From Deltaproteobacteria bacterium (lineage in GTDB: Bacteria; Myxococcota; B64-G9): DNA of 64,000 nucleotides. Under the pieces are notes generated by a model. The model made no database searches, was not told where the DNA came from, and saw nothing but the letters and a program-made list of their open reading frames with translations. The position numbers and the translations under genes are program-made. Below, piece by piece: positions 5,867 to 63,734 of the stretch (its first letter is position 1; every line of letters starts with the position of its first letter). Location: NCBI GenBank assembly GCA_016935365.1, contig JAFGRB010000371.1:4250-68249 (forward strand), read 5' to 3'.

Positions 5867-6039
5867 AGCGGATCACCCCTTTCCGATCGACGCTCCGGAC
5901 CGAATGGTCCGAGGCCGGCCATACAAAACACAGCCTCCAGTCGCTGTCAAGGAAAGAGTTCTCCAAGACGATCTCGCACCCAGAACCTCCATGGATGAGC
6001 CGCTACTTTTTCCTTGAAATGGTCCCCTTTCTCTGCTAA

Positions 6040-6215
6040 CGCTTCAGCTCACCCGCACCAGGACGTGTGGACAAAGTTAGAAATTCTGTGGATAAAAAAA
6101 TGTATTTCATTGATAAAAATGTGATTTTTCATTTTTCCACAAATGTGGATAAAGTGTTCCTCCAGCTCTCTTTTCACTTGCAAGAGCACATCCTTGGCAA
6201 GGATACCGATCTCTG
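6040..6215. promoter_or_regulatory. candidate oriC / dnaA promoter region: DnaA boxes plus AT-rich unwinding element
   Basis: Perfect DnaA boxes TGTGGATAA (complement of TTATCCACA) at 6087-6095 and 6144-6152, TTTTCCACA at 6133-6141, weaker TGTGGACA at 6067-6074. A ~45-nt stretch 6091-6135 is >80% A+T in a 68% GC genome. Lies between divergent rpmH and dnaA. Confidence 0.6.
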
Positions 6216-7580: not shown

Positions 7581-7823
7581 GCATCTCTGTGAATACCCTG
7601 TGTCCAGTCCTGTGGAAAGTCGGTGGAGACCGGGATCTCGCCCTTCTTCCTCACCCAGCTCACAGCTTCTCCACATGCCCTTGTTTTCATCTTCTTCTTT
7701 TGCTACTGTGGCTTATTGCCAATTCTTGCTTTTCACAGCCCTCTGCTATGACTTCTGTTCTTCTAATTAGATCCATATCTAAAACAGATCGAGCTCCAAA
7801 AATCCCCAGAGGAGATTCCTGAC

Positions 7824-8933: not shown

Positions 8934-8939
8934 TCTCAC

Positions 8940-44068: not shown

Positions 44069-44216
44069 CCGGCTCCTTCCTTTCCAGCGCAATGGACGAC
44101 TTCGGCTCCTTCTCAAGATAGGGGGCTTGCCCGGCACGGTCAAGACGTGAAACTGGAACCCGTTAGAGACCTGTGCTATCTCGAGAAACAGGTGCAGATG
44201 GCGGAGCGGAGGACCG

Positions 44217-44633
44217 ATGGACAAGCAGGAGTATCTCCATGAGTTGAATCGCTTGCGCAAGGAGTTCGCCTCGGCGACCGTCAACCCCGGCTCGTTCGAG
44301 TGCTCGGGCTGCGGGCAGTGCACCAGCTGCATGTTCTGCAAGGACTGCCGCAACTGCTACAAGTGCACCCACTGCAATACCTGTGAGCAGTGCTCCCATT
44401 CCAGCCACTCGGTCCAGTGCCGGCAGTGCCACAACTGCGCCTACTGCACCGACAGCGTCAACTGCTCGAGCTCTTCCTATCTGGTCATGTGCGAGAGCTG
44501 CGTGGACTGCACGTACTGCTTCGGGTGCGTGGGCCTCGGCAAGAGGGACTTCCATATCCTCAACCAGGCCTACGACCGCCAGACCTACTTCGAGATCACG
44601 ACCAAGCTCAAGCGGGCCCTGGGGATCCGCTAG
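44217..44633 (+). CDS. cysteine-rich small protein (138 aa; 26 Cys, mostly period-3 CxxC spacing)
   Basis: MDKQEYLHELNRLRKEFASATVNPGSFE-CSGCGQCTSCMFCKDCRNCYKCTHCNTCEQC-SHSSHSVQ-CRQCHNCAYCTD-SVNCSSSSYLVM-CESCVDCTYCFGCVGLG-KRDFHILNQAYDRQTYFEITTKLKRALGIR. Cys-free ~28-aa N-terminal and ~25-aa C-terminal helix-like regions flank the core. Protein-like codon usage. Confidence 0.6.
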   Translation: MDKQEYLHELNRLRKEFASATVNPGSFECSGCGQCTSCMFCKDCRNCYKCTHCNTCEQCSHSSHSVQCRQCHNCAYCTDSVNCSSSSYLVMCESCVDCTYCFGCVGLGKRDFHILNQAYDRQTYFEITTKLKRALGIR

Positions 44634-50200: not shown

Positions 50201-51433
50201 GCCGGCCACGTGGGCCGAGATCTCGTTGATGATCGCGTCTGCGCCGATGACCTTTCCCACCAGCTTGCGGCCCGAGCCGGTGGTGCCCACCCCTCGGATG
50301 TCGAAGCGGACGTTCTTGTCGCGCTCGATCGCCAGCATGGCCCGAAACAAGCACTTGGTGGCCTCGATGGGATCGCCGGCCGTCTTGCGATAGATGTCCA
50401 GCACGACCCGGTTCGCCTCGTCGACGAGCGCGAGCTTGGTGCTGGTCGAACCGATGTCGATGCCCAGCACGCCGCGTATGGTACTGGCTCCTTCGGGCCA
50501 GGCCACGAGGCGGACCTCGTTTTCCATGTCGTCGACGTAGCTCTCCCGAGTCTCGAAGGAGGGGTAGATAGAGCGCTCCAGGGTGAGCGGCCAGTCGTGG
50601 TGGAGATCGGAGTCGATGTGCGCCTGCTTCACGTGGATGGCGCGGGGCATCTTGCGGTCGAGCGCCCGGGCGAGCTGGGCGGCTCCGTAGGCTGCAGCCA
50701 GGTGCGGGTCGGCGGGTATCCGGACGAGGGACGGGTAGCGATGGCGCAGCCAGCGCATCACTTCCTGGTTCAGCGCCACCCCGCCGATGATGGCCACCGG
50801 CGTGTTCAGCGGGCGCCCGTTGAGCAGCGTGCTCAGCAGCGTGCGCGTCATGCCCCGGCACAGCCCGCTCCACATCGCATCCTTGGAGTATCCCTCCTGC
50901 TGGCGGTGGATCAGGTCGCTCTTGGCGAAGACCGTGCAGCGGGTGGCGATGGTCGGCGGCTCCTCGATGTGATCGAAGGCGGCCATGTCCTCGAAGGAGA
51001 TGCCCAGCCGCCGGGCCTGCTCGTCGAGGAAGGAGCCGGTGCCGGCCGCGCACAGCGAGTTGGTCGTGTAGCCCTGGAAGCGGCCAGCGGAGTCCAGCTG
51101 CACCAGCGTGGAGGAGCCGCCGCCGATGTCGATGATCTGGCGGGCCTCGGGGCACAACGACCGCATGGCCTCGATCTGGCAGCGCGAGATGTCCAGAAGC
51201 TCCAGGCCCAGGATATCGGCGAACAGGCCGGCTGCCGAGCCGGTCATCCCCAGGGCCGAGCGGTCCGAGGCGCCGAGATCGGCCAGGGCCGTCTCGAGCG
51301 CTTTGCCCGGGTCGCCCTGGTGGGCCCGGTAGAAGCGTCCGGTGATCTGCCCTCGCTCGTCGATGCGGACCGCCTTGCAGAACAGCGCACCGATGTCGAT
51401 TCCAATCCTGGTTGCGAGCATGACATCTCCCAT
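47204..51433 (-). CDS. 1409-aa acyl-CoA dehydratase activase-related fusion protein (two BadF/BadG/BcrA/BcrD-type ATPase domains plus two HgdB/DUF2229-like dehydratase-component domains)
   Basis: N-terminal ..IGIDIGALFCKAV.. (ASKHA phosphate-1), ..CAAGTGSFLDEQAR.. (ADENOSINE motif) repeated ..LGIDIGSTSTKLALVD.., ..CAAGTGSFVEEVS... Cys-containing ..ETCSLCQNNCKI.. Fe-S ligands. Large C-terminal 2-hydroxyacyl-CoA-dehydratase-like regions. Confidence 0.75.
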   Translation of the reverse strand: MGDVMLATRIGIDIGALFCKAVRIDERGQITGRFYRAHQGDPGKALETALADLGASDRSALGMTGSAAGLFADILGLELLDISRCQIEAMRSLCPEARQIIDIGGGSSTLVQLDSAGRFQGYTTNSLCAAGTGSFLDEQARRLGISFEDMAAFDHIEEPPTIATRCTVFAKSDLIHRQQEGYSKDAMWSGLCRGMTRTLLSTLLNGRPLNTPVAIIGGVALNQEVMRWLRHRYPSLVRIPADPHLAAAYGAAQLARALDRKMPRAIHVKQAHIDSDLHHDWPLTLERSIYPSFETRESYVDDMENEVRLVAWPEGASTIRGVLGIDIGSTSTKLALVDEANRVVLDIYRKTAGDPIEATKCLFRAMLAIERDKNVRFDIRGVGTTGSGRKLVGKVIGADAIINEISAHVAGAVQTDPEVDTIFEIGGQDAKYMHVVDGHIRDSNMNYVCAAGTGSFVEEVSSKLGYPVQKVGSVVLGIRPPRTSDRCTVFMEQDVEKMVQSGMPAEEALAGVMVSVVKNYLNRVVGNRHYSREKIFFQGATARNPALVAAFERLLGVQVVVSPYCHVMGSYGVAMLTRQLLESRRSEKSSFLGLDLDRRKIEIRYETCSLCQNNCKIAFADIEGLDEKPSWGYMCGRDPEETRMRVNRHDKPLRTRMRLWRQSGGGLEVDEHAPVIGIPQALTTFSYLPLWRRFFNSLGFRIQLSGQTDEIVKEIANQLTGAEFCFPAKVAIGHAARLASDEGADFVFLPHMVSAKQNEHTTAAKFCPYVQAMPSYCKSALAMNGLRTAHILSPVIDMRLRHSRMIAQLERDLGKPLGVNRKQIRIAWQEGLRAQREFEQACRAEGQKILSQARQKGEKLLVLLGRPYNSFDSGLNLDLPHKLAEQGRTVLPLDFLDFELEDLGERYRNTYWSYGQKILSACERVAADPLLDAVYLTNFSCGPDSFLQSFAEEVFSTRPFLALELDEHGADAGYMTRIEAYFDVLRRNHSEPSVRPRFVPEPTKMRDRIIWIPPLHPVNTPLFAAAFRRHGYEAQPLPPEDKETFELGRSLTRGSECLPTCLTLGAFIKAVRESGLPPRRHAEFMPTAEGPCRFGQYRTLHRQALDKIGMREAALLSPSSYNSYQGIDEPVRRDLWKALLAADWLFKATCKVRPYEVTPGETNRVLEQETQRLVEVLEGRGDIRRALTGSIERFRSIPRRGAPKPLVGIVGEIYVRCNTFSNEDVVGAIERFGGEAWLAPMGEWILYTAVMQSVSFWDRNRNPVAKWIADLKNLYVFQQDRKMTEAAGPFLADRREPDIHDVIDAGRRLLPVQFEGEALLTLGRAMKFAEQGAALVVNCAPFGCMPGTLTTAIFRKLAPELKIPVVGMFYDGEGKQNDRLSVFLNNAVERGEQPREEAREARGQPELRA

Positions 51434-51505
51434 CCTGTGTGTGGGGAATCAGGCGACTAAACTGACATGTCAGTCTAGTTGGGGCTCGGTTCCTGTCAAG
51501 GCTTT

Positions 51506-52789
51506 TTATATCGGCCCAGTGCGCTTGAAGGCGATCGCCCCGGCCAGGTTGACCGCGATCGAGACCAGGATCAGGCCCTTGGTCCAGCGGTTCATGGGTA
51601 TCCGGCCCACCGCGAGCAGCATGACGAGGTAGGGGGTGACGTCGAGGCTAAAGCGATAGCCGAACTGGACATAACCCGAGTTCTGATAGAACAGCGGGGG
51701 CAGGATGCCGGCGATCGCCGCAGCCCAGAGCACGGGGTAGAGCCAGGGCCTTTCTCGGGGCCAGAAGAGGCGGACGAAGACCGGGGTGGTCAAGAAGATG
51801 CTCATGCCGTCCGCGTTGTAGCCCAGGTAGGGGAAGTCCTCCAGCAGCACGGGCAGTCTGAGCAGCATGGCCCGGAGGTTCCACTCGAGGTAGTGATAGG
51901 CGAACAGGCCGTGCTTTGCGATCCGGGTTCCGGCCGGACCGGCCAGGTAGGAGTGACCGAACTCGAACACGGAGTGAAAGCGGATGTGGTTGAAGGCCAT
52001 CTGGGCGGCGCCCATGCACAGGATGGGCAAGCAGAACAGCGCGAGCTTCTCAGCGAGCTGGGAGAGCCGGCCCGCGGCCGGCTGTCCGTCGCGCAGCGGG
52101 AAGACCAGCTGCAGGCCGAAGTAGATCGCGGTGAAGGCCAGGTTCACCCGCGTGTCGAAGGCCAATGCCAGGAAGATGCCCGCCAGCAATGGATGCCGCG
52201 CGCGGGTCGCGCACAGGATGTAACTCAGGGTGAAGGTCACGCCGAGGATCTGGGCGGTGAACCATACCTCGCCGAGCACCGCGCAGCAGTAATGGAGGGT
52301 GCCGAATCCGAACAGGGCGGTCATCCAGAGCCGCTCGGAAGCCGACAGGCTCGCCAGGCCCTCGGCCACCAGCATCTCGAGGACGCAGAGCATGAGCAGG
52401 ACGTTGAGCGCCGCGAAGATCAGGGTGAAGAGCACATCGTTGAAGGACAATCCGAACAGCGCCACGCCCGGCATCATCAGCACGGCGGGCCCGGGCGGAA
52501 AGGACACATAGTCCTTGCCCTCATAGCGGATCCAGTCGTTGTTGTTGGGCGGCTTGACGCGCAGCTCCGCCATGCCGTGCAGGAAGGCGTCCGCCTGGTA
52601 GACGAAGTGCGGGCCCTGGGACTGCCTCAGCATGCGGTCGGCGCTGGTGGCGGCGAAGATGCACAGCGAGATACCGAACACGGCCAGATGATGCCGGTGT
52701 CGGGCGAACCAAGAGGTTTTGCCGATCTCCTGTCGGGTCGCCGCGCTGGCAGCCGGGTCGAGCTCTCCCATCGCCCGCGTGTTTCCCAC
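51506..52789 (-). CDS. polytopic integral membrane protein (427 aa, ~10 TM), possible GT-C-like glycosyltransferase/DUF2079-type
   Basis: Hydrophobic helices throughout, conserved-looking ..YVSFPPGPAVLMMP.. loop. No precise family assignment possible by eye. Confidence 0.5.
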   Translation of the reverse strand: MGNTRAMGELDPAASAATRQEIGKTSWFARHRHHLAVFGISLCIFAATSADRMLRQSQGPHFVYQADAFLHGMAELRVKPPNNNDWIRYEGKDYVSFPPGPAVLMMPGVALFGLSFNDVLFTLIFAALNVLLMLCVLEMLVAEGLASLSASERLWMTALFGFGTLHYCCAVLGEVWFTAQILGVTFTLSYILCATRARHPLLAGIFLALAFDTRVNLAFTAIYFGLQLVFPLRDGQPAAGRLSQLAEKLALFCLPILCMGAAQMAFNHIRFHSVFEFGHSYLAGPAGTRIAKHGLFAYHYLEWNLRAMLLRLPVLLEDFPYLGYNADGMSIFLTTPVFVRLFWPRERPWLYPVLWAAAIAGILPPLFYQNSGYVQFGYRFSLDVTPYLVMLLAVGRIPMNRWTKGLILVSIAVNLAGAIAFKRTGPI

Positions 52790-52865
52790 GCCAGCCGGCT
52801 TGAGTCAATAGCCCGTCGCAGCAGAGCATTCGCGGTTTGCGTGCCCGCGGCCAGGAGATACACAC

Positions 52866-55187
52866 TTGCCAAGCAGGCCTGTCGATGGCATATCCTGCCA
52901 GGGCAGAGGAATGGACATGCACCTGGACCGCTTGCAGCAGCTCCTGGCGCAGGCCGAGGCGAGTCGAGGCCCGCTTGCCGATCTGGGGCGGGCGCTCTCG
53001 GCCGAGATCGAGGCCATCATCAGCGCGGTCGAGCCGGGGAGAGAAGATCCCGTCCTGGTACAGCTGCTCGGTCCGGAGCTCTCCGGACTGGTCCGAAAGG
53101 TGCGCTGGAGCACGCTGGTACTCAATCCGGGTTCCACGTCCACCAAGGTCGCGGTATACGACGGGCTCATCCTCCTGGCCGAGGAGGAGATCCATCTGGC
53201 GCCCGATGCGAAGGACGGATTGCAGACCCGCGTGGCCCAGGTTCTCGACTGGCTGGAGCGGCGCGGTCTGAGCGTCCAGGAGCTGGCCGGCATCGCGGCC
53301 CGCGGAGGCCTGATGGCTCCGGTGGAGTGCGGGACGTACTGCATCTCGGAGAGTATGTTGGAGGATCTGGAGCGGCCACCCCACTTCCATCCCTCCAACC
53401 TGGCCGCGCCGATGGCCGTGCGGATCGCCGAGCAGGCCGGTCCCGATATCCTTCTGACCACCACGGATCCGGTGACGGTCGACGAGGTGGAGCTGGTCTG
53501 CCGCCTGACGGGCTCGGCTCGGATACTCAACGATGGGGTCGCGGTCCACTACCTCAACCACCGCGCCGTGACGGATCTGTGCGCGCAGGTGCTGGGCACG
53601 CAACGCGAGGCCCTGCGGCTGGTCTCCTGCCACATGGGAGGCGGGATGTCCGCTGCCCGGCACGAACAGGGCTGCATGGTCCAGGTGGTCCAGGGCTTCG
53701 GCGGGATACCCTCGGCGAATCGCTCGGGGGCCCTGCCCCTGCACCGCGTCATCGCCATGATGGAGTCCCACCAGTACACGCTCAACGACCTGCGGCGAGA
53801 TGTGACGAGCCACGGGGGGCTGCTCGCCCTGGCCGGGACCAATGACTTCAAGGCCTTCTTCCAGTTCGCCGAAGAAGCCAGCTCGACGCAGAGGCAGAAG
53901 ATCGAGCTCGTGACCGAGTTCTTCGCCCGCCGGGTGGCGTCCGCGATCATGCAGCTGGCCGCCGGGCCCAAGAGCCCGGACCTCGTGCTGCTGACCGGGG
54001 GCCTGGCCAGGGACCGAAGCTTCTGCGAGCGGGTCTCCGCCCGCCTCTGCTTGCCAACACCCGTGGTCCGCATACCCGGCGCCCTGGAGCACGCAGCCCT
54101 GGCCGCGGGGCTCTTGCGCGTGTGCGCGGAACCCGCCGCGTGCAAGGACTACGCGAGCGCGCGAGCGCGCACGGTGGATCGGCGCCACGTAGAGGAGCGA
54201 GTCCTCAGGGCCGAGATCTTCGGCCCGCCCCCGGAGCACGATCCTCGCCCGCCGGAGGGCCTGGAGCAGATCGTTCGCGCAGCCTGCCAAGGCGCGTCGC
54301 CCATCATCGCCCTGGTGGGAGCGGACAACGAGGAGGCCCTGCTCGCGGTCAAGAGCGCCAACGAGCAGCCCCATGGTCCGCTGGCTCGCTTTTTGCTGCT
54401 CGGCCCCTACAACCGGGTCTCCCGCCTCGCCTGGGAGCTGGACGTGCCCGTCGACGGCCATCAGGTCTTGATCGTGGACTGCACGGCCCCGGTGTCGCAC
54501 GCGGCCGAGCTGCTCCAGGCCGGGCTGGCCGACATCGTCATGAAGGGCAGCGTGACCACCGCCGACTTGCTCAAGGGCTACCTCGGGGTCCTCAAGCAGC
54601 GGGGTCTGCTCGCCAGGGGCGGGATCCTGCTCAGCCATGTCTCCTTCTTCGAGATCCCGGGCAGAGCCAGGCTGCTGGCCATCACCGACGCTGCCATCAA
54701 TCCCTATCCGGACGTGGAGACCCGGAGCCGGATCCTGCAGAACGCGCTCGACGTGCTCCACCTGCTCGGCTTCGTGCGCCCGCGGGTGGCGGTCATCTCG
54801 GCCGTGGAGAAGCCATCCAGGGCCGTGGCCTCGTCGGTCGAGGGCCGCGCGATCGCAGAGCGATTCGCGGATCGGGATGATCTGATCATCGAGGGACCGC
54901 TGTCGGTCGACCTCTCTCTCTCCCCGCTGGCCGCAAGGGAGAAAGGCTACACCGGCAAGATCCAGGGGGATGCCGACCTGCTGCTCGTGCCGGACATCGA
55001 TGCGGGCAACGCCATCTACAAGGCCTTCACGATCACGTCTGGAGCCAGCACGGCCGGAGTGGTCATCGGTGGGGAGAAACCTCTCGTCTTGACATCGCGT
55101 GGCGACAGCGCGCGCAGCAAGCTGGCCTCGCTCGCGCTGGCGGTGCTGCTGGCCAACCTGAAGAGAGGCGAGGGAGAGCCTAGATGA
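52866..55187 (+). CDS. fused butyrate kinase - phosphate butyryltransferase (Buk-Ptb) bifunctional protein, 773 aa (possible later start at ATG 52911)
   Basis: N-half ..LVLNPGSTSTKVAVYDG.. (acetokinase-family phosphate-1), ..VSCHMGGGMSAARHEQG.., ..LLTGGLARD... C-half PTA_PTB ..LAITDAAINPYPDVETRSRILQNA.., ..PRVAVISAVEKPS.., ..DADLLLVPDIDAGNAIYK... Confidence 0.8.
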   Translation: MPSRPVDGISCQGRGMDMHLDRLQQLLAQAEASRGPLADLGRALSAEIEAIISAVEPGREDPVLVQLLGPELSGLVRKVRWSTLVLNPGSTSTKVAVYDGLILLAEEEIHLAPDAKDGLQTRVAQVLDWLERRGLSVQELAGIAARGGLMAPVECGTYCISESMLEDLERPPHFHPSNLAAPMAVRIAEQAGPDILLTTTDPVTVDEVELVCRLTGSARILNDGVAVHYLNHRAVTDLCAQVLGTQREALRLVSCHMGGGMSAARHEQGCMVQVVQGFGGIPSANRSGALPLHRVIAMMESHQYTLNDLRRDVTSHGGLLALAGTNDFKAFFQFAEEASSTQRQKIELVTEFFARRVASAIMQLAAGPKSPDLVLLTGGLARDRSFCERVSARLCLPTPVVRIPGALEHAALAAGLLRVCAEPAACKDYASARARTVDRRHVEERVLRAEIFGPPPEHDPRPPEGLEQIVRAACQGASPIIALVGADNEEALLAVKSANEQPHGPLARFLLLGPYNRVSRLAWELDVPVDGHQVLIVDCTAPVSHAAELLQAGLADIVMKGSVTTADLLKGYLGVLKQRGLLARGGILLSHVSFFEIPGRARLLAITDAAINPYPDVETRSRILQNALDVLHLLGFVRPRVAVISAVEKPSRAVASSVEGRAIAERFADRDDLIIEGPLSVDLSLSPLAAREKGYTGKIQGDADLLLVPDIDAGNAIYKAFTITSGASTAGVVIGGEKPLVLTSRGDSARSKLASLALAVLLANLKRGEGEPR

Positions 55188-56962
55188 CGGCTCCGCACGA
55201 TATCGAGCGGCTTCTGGGGACGGGGCGTTTCGATCCACCTCCCGATCTGCGCCGGGGGGCCTGCTTCGATGACGAGGCCTCCTACCTGGCCTTCATCGAG
55301 GCCGCCGCCAGCGATCCGGACTCATTCTGGATGCGCATGGCTGGCGAGATCGACTGGATCGACATGCCCGCCCGAGCGGGCGGCGCGCCCCGCTGGTTTC
55401 CCGGCGGCCGTCTGAACCTGGCCGCCACCTGCCTGGGGCGGGGCGCTCCGGCCGATGTCCTGCTCTCCGGTGTGCGGAGCTCGAGCGAATGGATGACGCG
55501 CGGGGACCTGTTGGGCTGCGTGGGGGCGCTGTGCGAGATGCTCTCGGCCTGGTCGCTCCCGCTCGGCGCGCCCGTGCTGATCGCCTTTCCGCGCGGTGCG
55601 GAGATCTTGCCGGCCTCCCTGGCCTGCCTCTGGCGCGGCTGGATCTGCGTCCCCGTCGATCCGGACCGGGCCGATCCGGGCCGGGTATCGCGCCGGGCGC
55701 AGGCCGCGGGCTGTCGGGCCGTGCTGACGAGCCGCTCGGTCGTCGATGCGGGACACCTGCCCGGCGATCTGCCGAGCCCGCGGCTCGCGCTTTCGCCGGA
55801 CTGGACTGCGCTGCGGAGCGAGCCCCCCCCGGCGGAGGCCGTCGACGCCATGCATCCGGCCTTCATGCTGGCGGACTCTGCAGGCCGGCTCTACTCGCTG
55901 CCCTGTGCGGGCTTCGCGGTCCAGGCGCTCTCGAGCTATCGGTACCTGCTGGATGGTCGGGGCGAGAAGGACCTGCACTGGCTGCAGATGGCCTCTCACC
56001 ACGCGTCGTTTCTGGCGGGCAGCCTCGGGGCCTGGCTGGGCGGGGGGCGGGTCGTGGTTCCGCCGGGCGGCGATCTGCAGGATCTGTCCGCATGGCTGGA
56101 TGCGATCGGCAGGACTTCTCCGCGGGTCGTCGTGATACAGGCTGGCGAGCTCGAGAAGCTGCTCATGGATGGCTCGGGATCCGCACAGCGCGGGCCGGCG
56201 CTCATCGTGCTGGAGGGAGATGCGGTCTCTCCAGGTCTGTATCGCCAGGCCCGCGATCTCTTCGAGGGCCGCACCCACGTGGTCCAGGCCATCTCCCGGC
56301 CCGAGGGCGGGGGATATCTGGTGGGGCCCCAGCCGGGGGCCGTCTCCGTTCAGCCGGCATCGGCCGGACTGGCGGCACCGGGTGTGGGTCTCATCATCGT
56401 CGACGAGGAAGGCAAGACCTGCCCACCCGGCTACGGAGGGAGGGCAGCGCTGCGGCGTCCGCTGCCAGGGTTGGCGATCGAGCTGCAGGAGCACGAGCCG
56501 CCCATCCAGATCGGGCTGCATGCCCGCGTCGACCCCGCGGGATGCGTCTGGAGCATGGGCGAGGGCAAGGTGGCGAGAACCAAGGCGCGCACGCCGGTGG
56601 CCACGGCAGAGCTGGAGACCATGATCGCATCGCTGGATGGCGTACAGCAGGTGGCCGTGGTGCGCCACGAAGCGCCCGGGGGACCGGGCCGTGCCTGGGC
56701 TTTCGTGCAGCCGGCCCCGGACGCCCGGCTCGAGGCGAAGCACATCGGCGCGCAGATCGCAGACCGATTTGGACGAGAGGCCGTACCCGAGAGCATCCAA
56801 CTCGTCAGCCAGCTGCCCTTCAGCCGGACGGGCAAGGTGCTTCGCTCGGTCCTTCGGCGGATTGCCAGCGGGGATGCGAGCGGGCTGGGCGATCTGGAGG
56901 TCGGAGACCGGGAGGTCATCCAGCGCCTCATCGGCGAGTGCCAGGACGAAAACAGCGGCTGA
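55184..56962 (+). CDS. acetyl-CoA synthetase (AMP-forming)-like protein with degenerate P-loop (592 aa)
   Basis: N-terminal ..SYLAFIEAAASDPDSFWMRMAGEIDWI.. matches the Acs N-domain pattern (Y..LY..S..DP..FW...A..L.W). The position of the TSGSTGKPKG ATP/AMP motif reads ..LADSAGRLYSLP... C-terminal ..PFSRTGKVLRSVLRRIASG.. resembles the Acs A10 lysine region. ATGA overlap with buk-ptb. Confidence 0.55.
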   Translation: MTAPHDIERLLGTGRFDPPPDLRRGACFDDEASYLAFIEAAASDPDSFWMRMAGEIDWIDMPARAGGAPRWFPGGRLNLAATCLGRGAPADVLLSGVRSSSEWMTRGDLLGCVGALCEMLSAWSLPLGAPVLIAFPRGAEILPASLACLWRGWICVPVDPDRADPGRVSRRAQAAGCRAVLTSRSVVDAGHLPGDLPSPRLALSPDWTALRSEPPPAEAVDAMHPAFMLADSAGRLYSLPCAGFAVQALSSYRYLLDGRGEKDLHWLQMASHHASFLAGSLGAWLGGGRVVVPPGGDLQDLSAWLDAIGRTSPRVVVIQAGELEKLLMDGSGSAQRGPALIVLEGDAVSPGLYRQARDLFEGRTHVVQAISRPEGGGYLVGPQPGAVSVQPASAGLAAPGVGLIIVDEEGKTCPPGYGGRAALRRPLPGLAIELQEHEPPIQIGLHARVDPAGCVWSMGEGKVARTKARTPVATAELETMIASLDGVQQVAVVRHEAPGGPGRAWAFVQPAPDARLEAKHIGAQIADRFGREAVPESIQLVSQLPFSRTGKVLRSVLRRIASGDASGLGDLEVGDREVIQRLIGECQDENSG

Positions 56963-56978
56963 TCGGAGGACGACGCAG

Positions 56979-59057
56979 ATGAGGCGCCTGCTCTTTCCGG
57001 AACGCGTGGCCGTGATCGGTGAGTCCTTCGAGCAGGGCTGCCTCGGTCGCGTCGTGGCGGACAACCTGCTCGACTGCGGATTCGGAGGAGATGTACAGCT
57101 CGTCTGCCTCGATGGCCCGCGTGAGCTGCGCGGCCGGACCTGCCGAGAGAGCCTGGGGCCTTCGGACAGGGTGGATCTGGCGCTGGTCGCGACGGCGGCG
57201 GCAAGGCTCAAGCAGGCCGTGGATGCGGCCCTGCGAGCCCGACCGGGGCACCTGGTGGTGCTGACGCCGCTCGACCGGGAGGGCCGCCCCGAAGCCCACT
57301 CGCTGCATTCGGAGATTCTCCGCCGATGCAGGGATGGCCATGTGCGGCTCCTCGGACCCGGCAGCCTCGGGGTCATCAACGTCCACCACCACCTCCATGC
57401 ATCCTATCTGCCGAAGATCCCCGTTCCCGGAGGCATATCGGCCCTCTTCCGCTCCAGCGCGCTGGCCAGCGCACTCATCGACTGGCTCGTCCATCGAGGC
57501 CAGGGCGCGTCCGTCCTGATCGGCCTCGGTGACAGGAGCGATGTGGATGAGAGCGATCTGTTCGAGGCGCTGAAGCAGGAGGAGCAGACCCGGGTGGTGA
57601 TCGGATACCTGGAGCGCATCCGCTCCGGGGAGGACTTCGTCAAGCACGCAGAATCTCTTTCTTCCACGAAGCCGGTGGTGCTGCTCAAGGCGGGCGCCAC
57701 CGAGGCTGGCGAGCAGGCGGTCCTGGCCCACACCGGCCAGCGCGTCGCTTCGGAAGTGGCATTTGGGGCGGCGTTCAAGCGCTCGGGCGTGATCCAGGCT
57801 CACGCTTACCATGAACTGCTCGATTATTCCCGCGTCTTTGCCGCGCAGCCCCTGCCCAGGGGCGATCGCGTGGGCGTGGTCACCAATGCCGGAGGCGCCG
57901 GTATCCTGGCCGCCGACGCGGCGGAGCGCGCCGGGCTGAAGATGGCTCGCCTGGAAGAGGCCACCATCCGCAGCCTGAAGCATGTCCTGCCGGCCGAGAC
58001 ACGAATCGACAACCCGGTCGACTTGCTGGGCGATGCCGACGCGCAGCGCTTTGCCGCAGCGACCGATGCGCTCCAGGCCGACCCGGGTGTGGATGCGCTG
58101 CTGCTGGTCTTTACCCCTCACGTGCTCGTCGATGCGGCAGAGATCGTGCGCGGCACGCTGGCGGTGCTATCGGGCGAAAAGCCCGTCCTGGCCTCCTTCA
58201 TGGGGGGCACCAGCGTGGTCGACGCACGCGCGGCGCTGGTGGCCGCAGGCGTTCCCGACTATCCCTCGCCCGAGCGTGCCGTGGCTGCACTGGGCGCACT
58301 TTGCGAGTACGCGGCCTGGCGGCGAAGGCCCCCGCGGGTGGTGACCCGCTTTCGGGTCAACCGGCGCCGGGTCGAGCGCATCATCCGCCGACATCAGAGA
58401 CAGAATCGTCTGGACATCGAGGAGTTCCAGGCCAAGGAGCTGCTGGAGGCCTACGGCTTCAACATCCCCGAGGGAGCGCTCGTCGCGAGCCCCGAAGAGG
58501 CGGTGGAGACGGCGGAGCGGATCGGCTACCCGGTGGCCATGAAGATCGTCTCCGCCGATATCGTGCGCAAGTCGACCGTCGGGGGCGTGCGCCTGGACCT
58601 GACCACGCCCGACATGGTTCGCGATGCCTACGATCTGATCATGTTGCGCATCGCGCGCCGGCTGCCCGATGCGCACGTGGAGGGTGTCTACGTCGAGAAG
58701 ATGTGCCGGGGTGGCGGCGAGGTCGTCATCGGGATGCACCGGGACCCGCAGTTCGGGCCGATGCTGATGTTCGGCCTCGGAGGAATCGCGGTGGAGGTGA
58801 TGGAGGACGTCGCCTTCCACCTCGCGCCGATCACGTTCGAGGAGGCCATGCAGATGCTCGCCAGCACGCGCTCCTACGCCCAGCTGGAGGCATCCAGGGA
58901 CAGGGTGGACATGGGCGCCATTGCCACAGGGCTCCAGCTCATCAGCCAGCTGGCGACCGATTTTCCCCAGATCCTGGAGCTGGAGATCCATCCCTATATC
59001 GTGGGCCGGACAGGCACGGAGTCCGTGGCGGCCGATGCGCGCATCCTGCTGGCCTGA
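56979..59057 (+). CDS. ADP-forming acetyl-CoA synthetase-like protein (CoA-binding plus succinyl-CoA-synthetase-like plus ATP-grasp; Pat-N-domain-like), 692 aa
   Basis: ..RVAVIGESFEQGCLGRVVADNLLDCGFGGDV.. (CoA-binding Rossmann), ..VGVVTNAGGAGILAADA.. (CoA-ligase domain), ATP-grasp ..AKELLEAYGFNIPEGALVASPEEAVETAERIGYPVAMKIVSADIVRKSTVGGVRL... ORF-track 56637 start is an upstream extension. Confidence 0.8.
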   Translation: MRRLLFPERVAVIGESFEQGCLGRVVADNLLDCGFGGDVQLVCLDGPRELRGRTCRESLGPSDRVDLALVATAAARLKQAVDAALRARPGHLVVLTPLDREGRPEAHSLHSEILRRCRDGHVRLLGPGSLGVINVHHHLHASYLPKIPVPGGISALFRSSALASALIDWLVHRGQGASVLIGLGDRSDVDESDLFEALKQEEQTRVVIGYLERIRSGEDFVKHAESLSSTKPVVLLKAGATEAGEQAVLAHTGQRVASEVAFGAAFKRSGVIQAHAYHELLDYSRVFAAQPLPRGDRVGVVTNAGGAGILAADAAERAGLKMARLEEATIRSLKHVLPAETRIDNPVDLLGDADAQRFAAATDALQADPGVDALLLVFTPHVLVDAAEIVRGTLAVLSGEKPVLASFMGGTSVVDARAALVAAGVPDYPSPERAVAALGALCEYAAWRRRPPRVVTRFRVNRRRVERIIRRHQRQNRLDIEEFQAKELLEAYGFNIPEGALVASPEEAVETAERIGYPVAMKIVSADIVRKSTVGGVRLDLTTPDMVRDAYDLIMLRIARRLPDAHVEGVYVEKMCRGGGEVVIGMHRDPQFGPMLMFGLGGIAVEVMEDVAFHLAPITFEEAMQMLASTRSYAQLEASRDRVDMGAIATGLQLISQLATDFPQILELEIHPYIVGRTGTESVAADARILLA

Positions 59058-59074
59058 GAACCGAGGCGCAGAAC

Positions 59075-60958
59075 ATGAGCCAGATGAGTCGCAAGCCGAG
59101 CTACGATCCCGCCTGGCAGGAGAAGTACAGCAAGATGATCACCACGGCCGAGGAGGCGGTTTCGCATATTCGTCCTGGCCAGCGAGTCTTCATCGGCACA
59201 GGCTGCGCGCAGCCCCAGGAGCTGGTCAGGGCGCTGACCGCCCGCTCCTACGAGCTGGCCGATACCCAGCTGGTCCACCTCTTGACCATGGGGGATGCGC
59301 CGTATGCCCACAAGGAGCTGTCGCAGTACTTCTCGGTCAACTCGTTCTTCATCTCGGACAACGTGCGCGACATCATCCAGGAGGGCCTGGGGCAGTACAC
59401 CCCCATCTTTCTGTCCGACATTCCGGGCCTGTTCGACTCCGGGCAACTCCCGCTCGACGCCGCCCTGATCCACGTCAGCCCTCCGGACGAGCGGGGCATG
59501 GTCTCGCTGGGCATCTCGGTCGACATCGTCAAGAGCGCAGCCGAGAACGCCGCCCTGGTCATCGCCCAGGTGAACCCCCGCATGCCCCGCACCCTCGGCG
59601 ACAGCTTCCTGTCGGTCCACGATCTGGACTACCTGGTGCCGGTGGACGCTCCGCTGCTCGAGGCGGCCGCGCCGGAGCCGGACGAGGTGACCCGGAAGAT
59701 CGGCGAGTACGTCGCCGGGCTGGTCGAAGACGGCTCCACACTGGAGCTGGGTATCGGGCGGATCCCGCACGCGGTGCTCGAGAAGCTGGGAGACAAGCAG
59801 GACCTGGGCATCCACACCGAGATGCTCAACGATGCGATCATCGACATGGTCGAGTCGGGGGTAGTCTCCGGCAGGCAGAAGTCCATCGATCGCGGCAAGG
59901 TGGTGGCCAGCTTCTGCACGGGCACGCGTCGCCTCTACGATTACATCGACAACAATCCGGTCTTTGCCTTTCACCCGACCGAGTACGTCAACGACCCGTT
60001 CCTGATCGCCCAGCAGCACAAGATGGTGGCCATCAACGTGGCTCTGGAGATCGATCTGACCGGCCAGGTCTGCGCCGACTCGCTGGGCACGCGCTTCTTC
60101 TCGGGCATTGGCGGACAGGTCGACTTCAACCGCGGTGCCGCGCGGGCCGAGGGTGGCAAGGCCATCATCGCACTGCCCTCGACGGCCAAGGGCGGCTCGG
60201 TCTCGCGCATCGTGGCCCAGCTGAGCGCCGGTGCCGGTGTGGTGACCACGCGGGGGGATGTCTACTACGTAGTGACCGAGTACGGGGTGGCCTATCTGCA
60301 CGGAAAGAGCGTCGGCGAACGCGCCCTGGCCCTGATCGGCATCGCCCATCCCAGTTTCAGAGAGGAGTTGCTCCACCGGGCGATCGAGTTCAAGCTCCTG
60401 CGGCCCGAGATGGCCGACGTGGAAGGCAAGCTGCGCATCGAGCCTCCCGAGATGCGCACGACGTACTTGCTCGACGACGGGACCCAGATCAACTTCCGGC
60501 CCATGCTGCCCACCGACGAGCCCCGCTTCAAGGACCTCTTCTACGCGCTCAGCCAGCAGACCGTGTACTACCGCTTCATGTCGCACTTGAAGCGGATTCC
60601 CCTGAAGCAGATCCAGAACTTCGTCTACGTGGATCACCGCAACGACGTGGCGATCGCCGGGACGGTGCCCGAGGCGCATGGAGACGAGATCGTGGCCATC
60701 GGTCGCTACTACCTCGATCCGCAGACCAACCGCGCCGAGGTGGCCTTCGTGGTCCGGGACGAGTGGCAGGGGCGCGGGATCGGCAAGTTCCTCTTGCGCT
60801 ACCTGGCCACGATCGCGCGCCGAAACGGCATCCGGGGCTTCACCGCCGAGACGCTGCGCGACAACAAGGCCATGCAGGCCGTTTTCTACAAGAGCGGTTT
60901 CGACGTCAAGAGCAGGCTGAACGACGACGTCTACTCGTTCACGATCGACTTCGCCTGA
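59075..60958 (+). CDS. acetyl-CoA hydrolase/transferase (4-hydroxybutyrate CoA-transferase-like) fused to C-terminal GNAT acetyltransferase, 627 aa
   Basis: AcetylCoA_hydro N/C domains (..GQRVFIGTGCAQPQELV.., ..VAINVALEIDLTGQVCADSLGTRFFSGIGGQVDF..). After ~aa 440, GNAT core ..VAFVVRDEWQGRGIGKFLLRYLATIARRNGIRGFTAETLRDNKAMQAVFYKSGF.. (Q/RxxGxG/A acetyl-CoA site). Confidence 0.8.
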   Translation: MSQMSRKPSYDPAWQEKYSKMITTAEEAVSHIRPGQRVFIGTGCAQPQELVRALTARSYELADTQLVHLLTMGDAPYAHKELSQYFSVNSFFISDNVRDIIQEGLGQYTPIFLSDIPGLFDSGQLPLDAALIHVSPPDERGMVSLGISVDIVKSAAENAALVIAQVNPRMPRTLGDSFLSVHDLDYLVPVDAPLLEAAAPEPDEVTRKIGEYVAGLVEDGSTLELGIGRIPHAVLEKLGDKQDLGIHTEMLNDAIIDMVESGVVSGRQKSIDRGKVVASFCTGTRRLYDYIDNNPVFAFHPTEYVNDPFLIAQQHKMVAINVALEIDLTGQVCADSLGTRFFSGIGGQVDFNRGAARAEGGKAIIALPSTAKGGSVSRIVAQLSAGAGVVTTRGDVYYVVTEYGVAYLHGKSVGERALALIGIAHPSFREELLHRAIEFKLLRPEMADVEGKLRIEPPEMRTTYLLDDGTQINFRPMLPTDEPRFKDLFYALSQQTVYYRFMSHLKRIPLKQIQNFVYVDHRNDVAIAGTVPEAHGDEIVAIGRYYLDPQTNRAEVAFVVRDEWQGRGIGKFLLRYLATIARRNGIRGFTAETLRDNKAMQAVFYKSGFDVKSRLNDDVYSFTIDFA

Positions 60959-60964
60959 GCCGCG

Positions 60965-61774
60965 CTACTTCTTCATCTGCTGGCCGAACTCGTCCGCGCT
61001 GAAAAAGCCCTTTTCGATCAGCATCTTCGTGAGGTTGGTGATGATCGTGGTGGCCTTGCGCTGGTTGCGCATCAGCCGGTCCAGCCACGCATCCAGCTCG
61101 GCCGGGATCTCGGGGGATGCGTCCCGCGCGGGCAGGGGGGGCTCTGGCATCTCGGACGGGAGTGGCGGGGCGGGCGGGACCTCGAGCGCGCCCTCCTGCC
61201 GGACGCCGCCCACATGCTTGACGAGGGTCTTGCCGGACATCAGCGAGACCACCTTGAACTCCTCTTCCTCCTCCTCCTCGGACAGAGACAGATCGATGGC
61301 GTTCTCGGAGAAGGGATTGACCTCGGTCAGCGCGCTGCCGTATTCACGCTCGATGTACTCGCGGATTTCGCTGGGCCGGCCCACGAGGGGGCGCAGCAGG
61401 CGCAGGCCGCTGAGGATGCGGGCCTCGTTCTTGATGTCGTTGTCGAGCGGATCGGCCATGGCCAGCCAGAGCGTCGTGCCGCCCTCGCGGATGGCGCAGG
61501 GAAAGACGCAGTTCTTGGAACAGAACTCGGCCGGGAGCTTCTGGAGCGCGAGCGGGTCGATCTGCATCTTGGCGAGCGATATCAGCGGCAGGTTGCTGAC
61601 CGAGGCCAGGATGCCGGCAACCTGCTCCTCGGTCACGAAGCCCATCTTGACCACCATCAGGTGGAAACGCCCACCCCACTGGACCAGGTGATCCTGCACG
61701 GCGCGGAACTGCTCGTTGTCGATCAGGCGTCGGGTGACGAGTACCCTGGCTACTTTCGAGTCGATCGGATCCAT
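60965..61774 (-). CDS. MshEN/T2SSE_N-domain protein (GspE N-terminal-like) with acidic linker and Pro-rich C-terminal region, 269 aa
   Basis: ..VARVLVTRRLIDNEQFRAVQ.., ..VTEEQVAGILASVSNLPLISLAKMQIDPLALQKLPAEF.., ..LWLAMADPLDNDIKNEARILSGL... Then EEEEEEE and PPAPPLPSEMPEPPLP. No ATPase domain. Confidence 0.6.
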   Translation of the reverse strand: MDPIDSKVARVLVTRRLIDNEQFRAVQDHLVQWGGRFHLMVVKMGFVTEEQVAGILASVSNLPLISLAKMQIDPLALQKLPAEFCSKNCVFPCAIREGGTTLWLAMADPLDNDIKNEARILSGLRLLRPLVGRPSEIREYIEREYGSALTEVNPFSENAIDLSLSEEEEEEEFKVVSLMSGKTLVKHVGGVRQEGALEVPPAPPLPSEMPEPPLPARDASPEIPAELDAWLDRLMRNQRKATTIITNLTKMLIEKGFFSADEFGQQMKK

Positions 61775-61859
61775 GGCCGGTCTCGGTCTCCGCAGCCCAG
61801 AGTATACGATGTCTTCCGCCCGGCGGCCAGTATCTGCCCGCAGGCTCTCATTTGCCTGC

Positions 61860-62696
61860 TCATCGATTCGCGTAGCAGTACACGCAGCCGTGTCCGCACG
61901 TGCCGTTCGTGCCGATGTCCCGGCTCCGGGCGCACAGGCAGTGCGGCCGCTGGCCCGGATCCTTGGTGCCGTCGAGCTCGATGCCCCAGATGGCGCGGAT
62001 GAGGTCCGCGTCGATGCAGGCGCCGGCGGGGATGCCCGCAGCGCTGAAGTCCCACTCCGAGGCGCAGGACTGCATCTGGACGCCGCGGGCATTGGCCATG
62101 GCCGCGAGATCGGCGAGCAAGGCGGTCGCCTTGCCGCTCTGGGCGACGTCGCGCTCGAAATGCACGCCCTGCTGCTCCAGGCCGCGGAGCCTGCGGTCCA
62201 CCTTGCGATAGTAGGTGAGCAGGCTGATGATGACGCGGCGGGTATGGCCTTCGAGGGCCGCGCACAGCCGCTCGAAGGCCCGGCGGTGAAAGTCCGGATC
62301 CGTGCGGTTCGACAGCACGATGGGATCGTATCGCCAGCACACCCGCTGCGGTCCCAGCCGGTCGGACAGGCGCAGGAACGAACCGATCCGCGCATCGAGC
62401 GCCGGCAGGCCCGGCTCCAGATCCCGGCCATAGGCGTTGAGCGTGAACAGGAAGTAGTAACGATCCTGCCTTTCGTCCAGCATCGCGAGCCGCTCGAAGA
62501 ACGGCGCCGGATCCTTGGTCCAGAACACGAAGGCATACACATCTCGGCGCCGCAGAGAGAGGGTCGAGACCTGGCGCGGGTTGAAAGGGTTGGCCACCTG
62601 CACCGAGCCCGCCCGCAGGCGCTCTGCGAACCAGGCGCCTAAAAACGCGGGGATGTCGGTCCTTCTGGATGCGGAGATGATCACGGCGGCTGGCAT
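61860..62696 (-). CDS. DUF1848-like protein (278 aa) with C-terminal Cys cluster
   Basis: ..AVIISASRRTDIPAF.., ..FWTKDP.., C-terminal ..HCLCARSRDIGTNGTCGHGCVYCYANR. Family assignment from memory only. Overlaps mutM 3' end by 16 nt. Confidence 0.45.
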   Translation of the reverse strand: MPAAVIISASRRTDIPAFLGAWFAERLRAGSVQVANPFNPRQVSTLSLRRRDVYAFVFWTKDPAPFFERLAMLDERQDRYYFLFTLNAYGRDLEPGLPALDARIGSFLRLSDRLGPQRVCWRYDPIVLSNRTDPDFHRRAFERLCAALEGHTRRVIISLLTYYRKVDRRLRGLEQQGVHFERDVAQSGKATALLADLAAMANARGVQMQSCASEWDFSAAGIPAGACIDADLIRAIWGIELDGTKDPGQRPHCLCARSRDIGTNGTCGHGCVYCYANR

Positions 62697-63487
62697 CTCG
62701 GGCAGAGGTGCGTGCTGCGCTGGCCCGCCATGATCCGCTGGATGGGCGTGCCGCAGCGCGGGCACGGCTCGCCCGCCCGGCCGTAAACCCGGAGGTAGTC
62801 TTGCATGCGGCCTCCGGGGTAGATCCAGTCGATCGACGTGCCGCAGCGGCGGATGCCATCTCGGAGCACGCTGCGAATGGCCCGCCGGAGCCGGCGCACC
62901 TCATTCGGATCCAGATCGCAGGCGCGGCGCAGGGGATGCAGGCCGGCCCGGAAGAGCGCCTCGTCGGTGTAGATGTTGCCCAGCCCGGCCACAAAGGCCT
63001 GATCGAGCAGCAAGGGCTTGATGCGCCGACGTCGCTCGCCGAGCATGCGCAGCAGGCGCGCCGCGTCGAAGCCGGCGGACAGCGGCTCCGGCCCGAGCGC
63101 GTCCAGGGCTGCCTCGACGTCTCGCACGTGCCGGATGCGCCCGAACTTGCGCGCATCGCAAAACAGCAGGCGCTCGCCGCCCTGCATAATAAGCCGGGCT
63201 CTCTCGTGGGGTTCTGGGAGCCGGACACCGCTCCGGTCGACCCAGGCCAGCCGGCCGCTCATCTTGAGGTGCAAGAGAAGCGCACTGCCGTCGTCGAGGT
63301 GGATGACGATCAGCTTGCCCCGCCTGGCCAGCTCCAGGATCCGCCGCCCGCACACGGCTCGCCGCACCCGCGCGACGGACGGGGAGATCTGCCGCGGCCA
63401 GCTCGCCTCGAAGCCCGCGATTCGCTTGCGAAGCAAACGGGGCCGAAAACGCCGAACGATCGTCTCCACCTCGGGCAGCTCGGGCAT
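62681..63487 (-). CDS. mutM: formamidopyrimidine-DNA glycosylase MutM/Fpg
   Basis: MPELPEVETIVRR (N-terminal Pro-Glu catalytic dyad), H2TH region, C-terminal zinc finger CPRCGTPIQRIMAGQRSTHLCPRCQ. Confidence 0.85.
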   Translation of the reverse strand: MPELPEVETIVRRFRPRLLRKRIAGFEASWPRQISPSVARVRRAVCGRRILELARRGKLIVIHLDDGSALLLHLKMSGRLAWVDRSGVRLPEPHERARLIMQGGERLLFCDARKFGRIRHVRDVEAALDALGPEPLSAGFDAARLLRMLGERRRRIKPLLLDQAFVAGLGNIYTDEALFRAGLHPLRRACDLDPNEVRRLRRAIRSVLRDGIRRCGTSIDWIYPGGRMQDYLRVYGRAGEPCPRCGTPIQRIMAGQRSTHLCPRCQPP

Positions 63488-63734
63488 GGCGAGCGCGATC
63501 CTCACACGTCTCGAAGGTGTGCACAAGCGCGGGTGCACGATGATTGACCAAGCTATGCGTCCCCCTCCCTCGGCCTTCGGCCGGTCCCTCCCGCCAGGGG
63601 AGGGATGGATAACACTCTGTGCACATTGGAAAATCAACCTCCCCCTGACGGGTGGGGGTAAAACGCGACAGCGGATGCCTCGGGAAGATGGGGGATGACA
63701 CGCCCGCGCGGTCTGGGATAGGCTGCGGGTCTGG

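Follow-up and report, generated by a model that had tools for sequence, protein, structure and literature searches.

A conserved, degenerate acetyl-CoA synthetase homologue coupled to a butyrate kinase-phosphate butyryltransferase fusion beside a CoA-transferase::GNAT fusion: a candidate protein-acylation cassette in a Myxococcota-like bacterium

Why would a bacterium keep an acetyl-CoA synthetase (Acs) homologue that has lost its catalytic motifs, and keep it in one gene cluster with a Pat-type acetyltransferase and with enzymes acting on short-chain acyl-CoA? The question is raised by a four-gene cassette in a Deltaproteobacteria bacterium (GTDB lineage Myxococcota; B64-G9), located in a window of 64,000 nucleotides (contig JAFGRB010000371.1 of assembly GCA_016935365.1, positions 4,250 to 68,249 of the forward strand). 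All four open reading frames were confirmed and are co-directional on the + strand, namely a butyrate kinase::phosphate butyryltransferase fusion (Buk-Ptb, 52917..55187, 756 aa), the Acs homologue (pAcs, 55184..56962), an ADP-forming acyl-CoA synthetase homologue of the fused alpha-beta kind (ACD, 56979..59057, 692 aa) and a 4-hydroxybutyrate-type CoA-transferase fused to a Pat-type GNAT (CoAT::GNAT, 59075..60958). Every domain call of the initial annotation, which had been made from the sequence alone, proved correct by Pfam, NCBIfam, PDB and fold searches, and the match statistics behind these calls are far above chance. We hold with high confidence that the region has this composition and is one operon made of two evolutionary modules, ACD with CoAT::GNAT (module A) and Buk-Ptb with pAcs (module B). 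Module A is common and uncharacterised, and what is distinctive here is the addition of Buk-Ptb and a dead Acs, together with a decaying ATP-site motif in the ACD. The argument below is built on the genes and domains present, on the motifs lost or kept, and on conservation, linkage and evolutionary rates.

The Pfam families ACAS_N, AMP-binding and AMP-binding_C all match pAcs, and on two NCBIfam acetate--CoA ligase models it scored 103 and 86 bits, where the cut-offs are 657 and 725, respectively. It had been suggested that this protein is degenerate at the P-loop and keeps an A10-lysine tail, and alignment to genuine Acs proteins bears out both points. The remnant of the A3 phosphate-binding loop, FMLADSAGRLYSLP (residues 227-240; 55862..55903, + strand), aligns to FILYTSGSTGKPKGVLHT of S. 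enterica Acs and was also compared with other genuine Acs; the loop reads ADSAGRLYSLP, with a deletion of 4-6 residues and no T/S-G-x-x-G-x-P-K-G. The Asp of motif A7, a ribose contact, is gone (GLHA in place of GDxA), the Arg/Gly hairpin of A8 is gone as well, with GEGKVARTKART standing for GRVDDVINVSGHR and no conservation of this stretch across the pAcs family, motif A4 is altered and about 20 residues are missing ahead of A7. Judged from these losses, pAcs is almost certainly unable to adenylate. What has been kept is the A10 / PX4GK motif, LPFSRTGKVLRSVL (56813..56854, + strand; Lys551 codon 56834-56836), in which P545-x4-G550-K551 is invariant in 26 aligned pAcs sequences; 7 of the 27 invariant columns (L544, P545, R548, G550, K551, R554 and L557) fall within the 14-residue LPxSR(S/T)GKLLRSVL. 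PX4GK is the motif at which AMP-forming synthetases are acetylated (PMC11619455). The sole Acs functional motif kept in pAcs is the very one on which Pat-type enzymes act. Glu374 of motif A5 is, like Lys551, invariant in the pAcs family, and residues of both types contact phosphate or carboxylate in genuine Acs.

The degenerate protein is shared by a narrow and divergent family. A word-indexed search returned ten relatives only, at 37-47% identity, followed by a drop to genuine Acs at about 25%, and a profile search of 1.84 billion representatives found about 25 clusters (50% identity), beyond which only giant nonribosomal peptide synthetases score. The P-loop with its deletion, the lost A7 Asp and the lost A8 hairpin are common to all members of the 26-sequence alignment. 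The AlphaFold2 (AF2) model of pAcs is confident (pLDDT 89.6, pTM 0.79) and has two domains, its top Foldseek matches are Acs structures (TM 0.64-0.69, 19-22% identity), and the ratio of nonsynonymous to synonymous substitution rates (dN/dS) was 0.26 in the closest unsaturated pair, indicating purifying selection; on these three grounds pAcs is deduced to be folded and under selection. That pAcs is a pseudogene was considered and rejected, since it is full-length in about 25 divergent clusters with shared invariant residues and its dN/dS is well below 1. A full-text literature search, with most subscription journals outside its reach, found no paper on a dead Acs of this kind.

The partner of pAcs is Buk-Ptb. 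The fusion was found directly upstream of pAcs in 15/15 distinct loci with upstream DNA, namely the window, the loci labelled L001-L004, L006, L008, L009, L089, L090, L094-L096 and L098, and the contig of P0005 (L004, L006 and L003 occur a second time, as L005, L007 and L091, respectively). In the window the Buk-Ptb stop overlaps the pAcs start by 4 nt, ATGA at 55184-55187, and the same 4-nt overlap was seen in all 8 distinct loci with junctions called or read, thus the two genes are apparently translationally coupled. Module B is rare, corresponding to the roughly 25 pAcs clusters.

Both catalytic domains of Buk-Ptb carry the motifs of their families. Acetate_kinase and PTA_PTB are the Pfam matches (E 8e-35 for the Ptb domain), the curated butyrate kinase model NF002834 is passed with 252 bits against a cut-off of 222, the Ptb domain stays under the TIGR02706 cut-off (228 vs 410), the best PDB matches are 7vg9 for Ptb (E 9e-48) and 1saz for Buk2 (E 7e-43), and the Buk motifs NPGSTSTK, HMGGG and TGGLA were all found. 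An identical database protein of 756 aa begins at 52917; TTG at 52866 and ATG at 52911 are alternative starts. The domains are an N-terminal extension of about 65 aa, Buk at about 66-419 and Ptb at about 458-750. Compared with the clostridial Ptb-Buk butyrate pathway, the catalytic domains are alike, but here they are fused in the order Buk-Ptb, preceded by an extension and coupled to a dead Acs. Fused Buk-Ptb proteins exist in about 90 homologue clusters, and a longer subfamily of about 812 aa comes from Krumholzibacteriota and other metagenome-assembled genomes (MAGs). In both subfamilies an extension without a family match precedes the kinase, about 65 aa here (52917-53110) and about 115 aa in the long form, which could be a docking or regulatory segment. 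On two independent contigs the long form lies in a CoAT::GNAT - HDAC - Buk-Ptb cluster, and in a third it stands alone; in these clusters (L101, 4857-10439; L103, 4776-10436) the CoAT::GNAT is divergent, the deacetylase is of the HDAC family, and neither ACD nor pAcs is present. They are independent evidence tying Buk-Ptb fusions to a writer/eraser pair of lysine acylation. The Buk-Ptb fusion was not found described in our full-text search, which left most subscription journals out of reach.

The putative writer is the last protein of the cassette. AcetylCoA_hydro, AcetylCoA_hyd_C (E 1e-65) and Acetyltransf_1 (E 5e-12) all match it in Pfam. Residues 1 to about 440 (59075..60394, + strand) form a CoA-transferase domain of the 4-hydroxybutyrate / butyryl-CoA:acetate type, with PDB matches 9vag (E 6e-147) and 3gk7 (E 8e-116) and 298 bits on TIGR03948, under the cut-off of 675. 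AbfT and butyryl-CoA:acetate CoA-transferase match these ~440 residues at full length, including the HTE glutamate and GGQxDF; the motif GGQVDF is present, and Glu249 in DLGIHTEM (codon 59819-59821) is the putative catalytic residue, an assignment that we presume from the alignment offset and from Glu238 of AbfT. Of 83 fusions, at least 95% conserve HTE and GGQxDF. Unlike AbfT, the fusion continues into a C-terminal Pat-type GNAT of about 185 residues (linker and GNAT, residues ~441-627; 60395..60958, + strand). Residues 443-626 match full-length PatZ (9isq/9it0) with E 2e-21, the GNAT of S. lividans PatA (4nxy/4u5y) is matched over about 180 residues with E ~2e-21, M. tuberculosis Pat (4ava) is matched as well, and the score on NCBIfam ActPatMycb56 is 92 bits. 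The C-terminal GNAT that had been called from the sequence alone is therefore of the Pat type by profile search and by PatZ/PatA alignment. It keeps AEVAFVV with the general-base Glu and QGRGIG, the acyl-CoA phosphate-binding motif (QxxGxG), and looks active by these residues; the aligned PatA GNAT is the one crystallised with an Acs C-terminal domain. We consider it probable that the GNAT of the fusion acylates proteins of the Acs type.

The initial annotation took the arrangement for a local rewiring of Pat, but the pair of CoAT::GNAT and ACD is instead a widespread two-gene module in which the ACD is normally canonical, with both catalytic histidines. The fusion was matched in at least 583 places of a one-genome-per-species collection, in many phyla and including the cultured Desulfurivibrio dismutans, with 60-85% identity across phyla. 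Among its 80 best loci, which are the basis of the neighbourhood counts of module A, an ACD lies directly upstream in 77, and 2 of the 3 loci without it are truncated where the contig ends. A genuine acs, with 50-57% identity to bona fide Acs, adjoins module A in 10/80, mostly divergent from the ACD as in the acsA-acuABC geometry, and HDAC-family deacetylase homologues lie no more than 10 kb away in about 22/80, being directly adjacent in L014, L015, L017, L035, L049 and L051. The Pat/Acs logic gains support from this, because the ACD-CoAT::GNAT pair elsewhere adjoins genuine acs and HDAC-type deacetylase genes. The CoAT::GNAT writer thus recurs together with an enzyme for acyl-CoA + ADP + Pi -> acid + ATP, either ACD or Buk-Ptb, and likewise with Acs-type proteins and with deacetylases. 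As to individual cases, L014, L015, L017, L022, L030, L035, L040 and L059 have a genuine acs within about 2-6 kb of the ACD start, some with an HDAC-type gene, and the acs-flanked loci belong to Verrucomicrobiia, Kiritimatiellae, the PVC group, Chloroflexota-like and other MAGs. Within its reach, which excluded most subscription journals, the full-text search turned up no description of a CoA-transferase and GNAT fusion or of an ACD/GNAT/deacetylase operon.

In the pAcs cassettes the ACD has changed, a feature that the initial annotation missed. The window ACD carries CoA_binding_2, Succ_CoA_lig, Ligase_CoA_2 and ATP-grasp_5 (E 5e-75), its best PDB match is 8WZU, the 4-hydroxybutyrate-CoA ligase Nmar_0206 of Nitrosopumilus maritimus (389 bits, E 4e-115; PatZ, 280 bits), with the same domain order, and it reaches 450 on the NCBIfam equivalog, far under the cut-off of 1300. 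In Nmar_0206, H256 and H535 are the two phosphoryl-transfer histidines and the swinging loop is made of small residues (PMC11494057). The window ACD keeps the histidine of the swinging loop (His251, codon 57729-57731; H256 in Nmar_0206) in an atypical loop, QAVLAHTGQRVASE, with Gln and Arg, but the site-II histidine equivalent to H535 is replaced by Arg530 (codon 58566-58568), so that HKSD has become RKST. The loop histidine is present in 77/77 module ACDs and the second histidine in 74/77, and the 70 canonical module-A ACDs have the swinging loop KAASSHTGSLAGAD and the ATP-grasp motif HKSD. By comparison, in the 8 distinct pAcs-linked ACDs the loop histidine is kept throughout, the second histidine is replaced in 4 and HKSD is altered in 7; their loops are unlike the canonical one and unlike each other, with a small-residue fraction of 0.23-0.62 vs 0.73.

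Evolutionary rates set the same proteins apart. In an unrooted split test on a neighbour-joining tree the cassette ACDs form one clean split, and their distance to canonical ACDs was 0.47-0.54 vs 0.345 among canonical ones, the cassette clade being the faster, whereas their partner CoAT::GNAT fusions are not accelerated (0.31-0.35 vs 0.34). For the pair L005/L096, dN/dS was 0.06 in CoAT::GNAT, 0.22 in ACD, 0.23 in Buk-Ptb and 0.26 in pAcs, while four canonical ACD pairs of similar synonymous divergence gave 0.05-0.14. The cassette ACD therefore looks like an ACD relieved of constraint on ATP-linked catalysis that is still a partner of the GNAT fusion, and a possible cause of this relief is that the same net reaction is available from Buk-Ptb. 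The reading of the ACD as a regulatory domain split off from Pat was rejected, since its score as a true ACD exceeds that against PatZ and the loop histidine is kept, which in PatZ is missing through a deletion at that site. As a separate observation, an in-frame stop splits the ACD gene of L004 (~7314-9455, GCA_964561025.1) into two calls; it is absent from the otherwise identical L005 (7298-9439, a Logan contig) and reflects an error of assembly or else an inactivation at the level of the strain.

Modules A and B are adjacent in 11/14 informative pAcs loci, in three arrangements: B then A in the window, L002, L004, L006, L009, L090, L092 and L096, A then B in L095 and L098, and convergent in L099. 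The four-gene neighbourhood is therefore conserved in relatives, whose pAcs proteins are 37-48% identical, in three gene orders, as had been put forward for checking. The dead Acs is coupled in the first place to Buk-Ptb, and the GNAT pair is not next door in 3/14.

Reversible lysine acylation of acyl-CoA synthetases is the best-understood bacterial control of metabolism by protein acylation, and the four genes may be read in its light. We put forward, tentatively and at a little less than even odds, that the cassette is a unit controlling the interconversion of short-chain acyl-CoA and ATP through reversible lysine acylation, the dead Acs being both acylation target and regulatory subunit; acylation of pAcs, the protein complexes, the regulatory outcome and the substrates are the inferred parts of this proposal. 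Module A would be a lysine acyltransferase unit whose Pat-type GNAT has AMP-forming acyl-CoA synthetases as its usual clients and which is tied to an enzyme running acyl-CoA + ADP + Pi to acid and ATP. From established enzymology, its logic would be to hold the AMP-forming synthetases off while the ATP-yielding route runs the opposite way, so that a futile cycle is avoided. Buk-Ptb of module B would carry out the same net conversion via acyl-phosphate, and together with the CoA-transferase it would determine the local amounts of acyl-CoA and acyl-phosphate with short chains (C2-C4, possibly 4-hydroxybutyryl); by swapping CoA between acids, the CoA-transferase domain would set or sense the acyl-CoA available. 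The GNAT would read these pools and acylate Lys551 of pAcs, and pAcs would serve as pseudo-substrate or regulatory subunit that acylation switches in its binding to the GNAT fusion, to Buk-Ptb or to both, the cassette ACD probably being mainly a Pat-like regulatory partner of the GNAT. That Lys551 is a GNAT substrate could well be the case, though we would not quite put it at even chances, and a regulation of Buk-Ptb by pAcs is a distinctly less likely step. A precedent is given by AcsA and AcuA of B. subtilis, whose tight complex keeps AcsA silent and falls apart upon acetylation (PMC11255334), and which can take acetyl-phosphate and CoA as donor, linking the kinase/phosphotransacylase branch to the control of Acs (PMC11255334).

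Set against known systems, the unit would work like the Pat-Acs and AcuA-AcsA systems and is not a member of Pat type I. Shared with Pat/PatZ of S. enterica and E. coli, which acts on Lys609 of Acs, are a GNAT homologous over its full length with the catalytic Glu and the CoA-phosphate motif, an ACD-type companion, which in the window is partly without its phosphoryl-transfer machinery, and an Acs-type protein with a PX4GK lysine next door. Unlike in type I Pat/PatZ, ACD and GNAT are encoded by separate genes, the GNAT follows an apparently active CoA-transferase, the loop histidine is present and the neighbouring Acs is catalytically dead. Laid out as in acsA-acuABC of B. subtilis, related module A loci combine the GNAT writer with a divergent acs and an eraser of the HDAC type, and as in B. 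subtilis the kinase/phosphotransacylase branch would here be functionally linked to Acs-type acylation; AcuA, however, is a stand-alone GNAT of another subfamily, AcsA is an active enzyme, and the present cassette encodes kinase and phosphotransacylase as one polypeptide and has no HDAC hit in the window. A 2021 review distinguished five types of GNAT acetyltransferase, and a 2025 structural paper on PatZ analysed types I-IV across bacteria, with no CoA-transferase-linked type in either.

Several points weigh against our proposal of an acylation control unit. The rate comparison for the cassettes comes from one unsaturated pair, and neighbour-joining trees are open to long-branch effects; the loop histidine of the His251 type is found in all cassette ACDs, which are under purifying selection, and the cassette ACD may keep some activity. 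HDAC probes found no homologue in the window or next to any pAcs cassette, sirtuins being outside this search. In L001, L003 and L008 module B stands alone with the GNAT pair not nearby, thus pAcs may work with Buk-Ptb alone. The negative deacetylase result and these three loci carry the most weight against acylation. Finally, since A10 also contributes to the structure of the C-terminal domain of ANL enzymes, its conservation could have another cause, for example the binding of phosphate or acyl-phosphate. A rival reading is a plain catabolic or fermentative operon, in which Buk-Ptb, ACD and the CoA-transferase are parallel routes linking short-chain acyl-CoA with acid and ATP, the GNAT regulates genuine Acs enzymes of other loci and pAcs is a non-catalytic, structural subunit of Buk-Ptb and no acylation target. 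All three enzyme types work at the same acyl-CoA/acid node, pAcs is tied to Buk-Ptb in every informative locus with the GNAT pair missing next door in three of them, and genuine acs does neighbour module A in 10/80. Such an operon, however, leaves unexplained why the acetylation motif is the only, and an invariant, catalytic motif of Acs to remain, why the modules have stayed together through three rearrangements and why site II of the ACD was lost precisely in these cassettes, and we regard it as a rather improbable account, though the most serious competitor.

Less probable again is that pAcs handles acyl-phosphate, binding the product of Buk, a mixed anhydride like acyl-AMP, through Lys551 and Glu374 and channelling it to Ptb, to CoA or to the GNAT, as a hard-wired form of the phosphotransacetylase activity that has been reported for AcsA-AcuA. 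The obligate and apparently translational coupling to Buk-Ptb would fit, as would the AcsA-AcuA precedent (PMC11255334), but Ptb already catalyses the reaction of acyl-phosphate with CoA, and pAcs shows no conservation of the A8 hairpin or of the residues that contact CoA. The invariance of Glu374 and Lys551, whose counterparts in genuine Acs make phosphate/carboxylate contacts, favours this handling, although ANL enzymes are not known to take acyl-phosphate. A protein that retains the recognition motif and has no activity to lose might also act as a decoy or buffer, soaking up or sequestering the GNAT so that genuine Acs stays active until acyl-CoA is very high, for which the tight AcsA/AcuA complex is a model (PMC11255334). 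The strict coupling to Buk-Ptb would be left unexplained, neither the window nor the surroundings of any pAcs cassette showed a genuine acs, and we think this unlikely. That pAcs and the cassette ACD are functionless, decaying remnants is largely refuted and very improbable: catalytic motifs are lost in both, their dN/dS exceeds that of the fusion and L004 has its in-frame stop, but pAcs is intact in about 25 divergent clusters with family-specific invariant residues and a confident AF2 model, dN/dS is only 0.22-0.26, and the stop is not found in L005.

The control unit thus stays our preferred explanation, and the cassette suggests a new bacterial tie between energy-yielding acid metabolism and protein acylation, at the butyrate / 4-hydroxybutyrate / acetate node that is relevant to anaerobic carbon flow. 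CoAT::GNAT with its ACD partner fits none of the five types yet occurs in hundreds of species, and its characterisation would close a wide gap. Should the dead Acs prove to be an acylation target with a regulatory role, bacteria would offer a clear example of a pseudo-enzyme retained as a substrate for signalling, and a plausible route from active ACDs to Pat-type regulatory domains would be at hand as well. Going further, one may speculate, with the odds clearly against the idea as a whole, that ACD and CoAT::GNAT represent a sixth, unrecognised and widespread class of lysine acyltransferase, in which the GNAT is fed or gated by a working CoA-transferase instead of a dead synthetase domain, and that the Myxococcota-like lineage of the window recruited a dead Acs as an acylation-switched subunit of Buk-Ptb while its ACD turned Pat-like. 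Were this true, it would be a pseudo-substrate switch in which substrate-level phosphorylation responds directly to acyl-CoA and acyl-phosphate levels.

With regard to expression signals, the small gaps and overlaps reported between the four genes were found as the above 4-nt overlap, a 16-nt gap between pAcs and ACD with the ribosome-binding site GGAGGA ahead of the ACD start at 56979, and a 17-nt gap between ACD and the start of CoAT::GNAT at 59075; a purine-rich ribosome-binding site precedes each of the two gaps. Codon-position GC of the four genes (GC3 0.83-0.90, GC2 0.40-0.55) shows a coding pattern in a genome of 66% GC. A scan of 52400-61400 gave no sigma-70-like promoter and two terminator-like sites, both within shuffled expectation, the scan being uninformative for this organism in either respect, and no RNA family of Rfam was matched in 51000-62000.

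The cassette is flanked on both sides by genes of the opposite strand. Divergent from it are a 1409-aa protein of the 'CoA enzyme activase' type with BcrAD_BadFG and DUF2229 (47204-51433, - strand) and a 427-aa membrane protein without Pfam match (51506-52789, - strand). This pair also flanks the cassette in L002 and L090 (67-75% identity) and is not seen in the more distant cassette loci, which is probably lineage synteny, the link to acyl-CoA chemistry being suggestive. The next gene 3' of the cassette is convergent, and the genes on this side encode an MshEN-domain protein (60965-61783, - strand), a DUF1848 protein (61860-62765, - strand) and an Fpg DNA glycosylase (62681-63637, - strand), the maximal reading frames of the latter two sharing about 85 nt; of these, MshEN genes recur close to the cassette in L002 and L006, and Fpg does so in L006. 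Farther away, 41199-44353 (- strand) holds two tandem genes of PmbA/TldD-family metallopeptidases, the true start of the second being probably later because a twin-arginine signal lies about 100 residues into its maximal reading frame, and a PmbA/TldD gene is also found near the cassette in L004. The first 8 kb of the window have a GC content of 0.54-0.65, with the minimum at 6001-8000, vs 0.63-0.70 in most of the window past about 22 kb, and this segment could be horizontally acquired.

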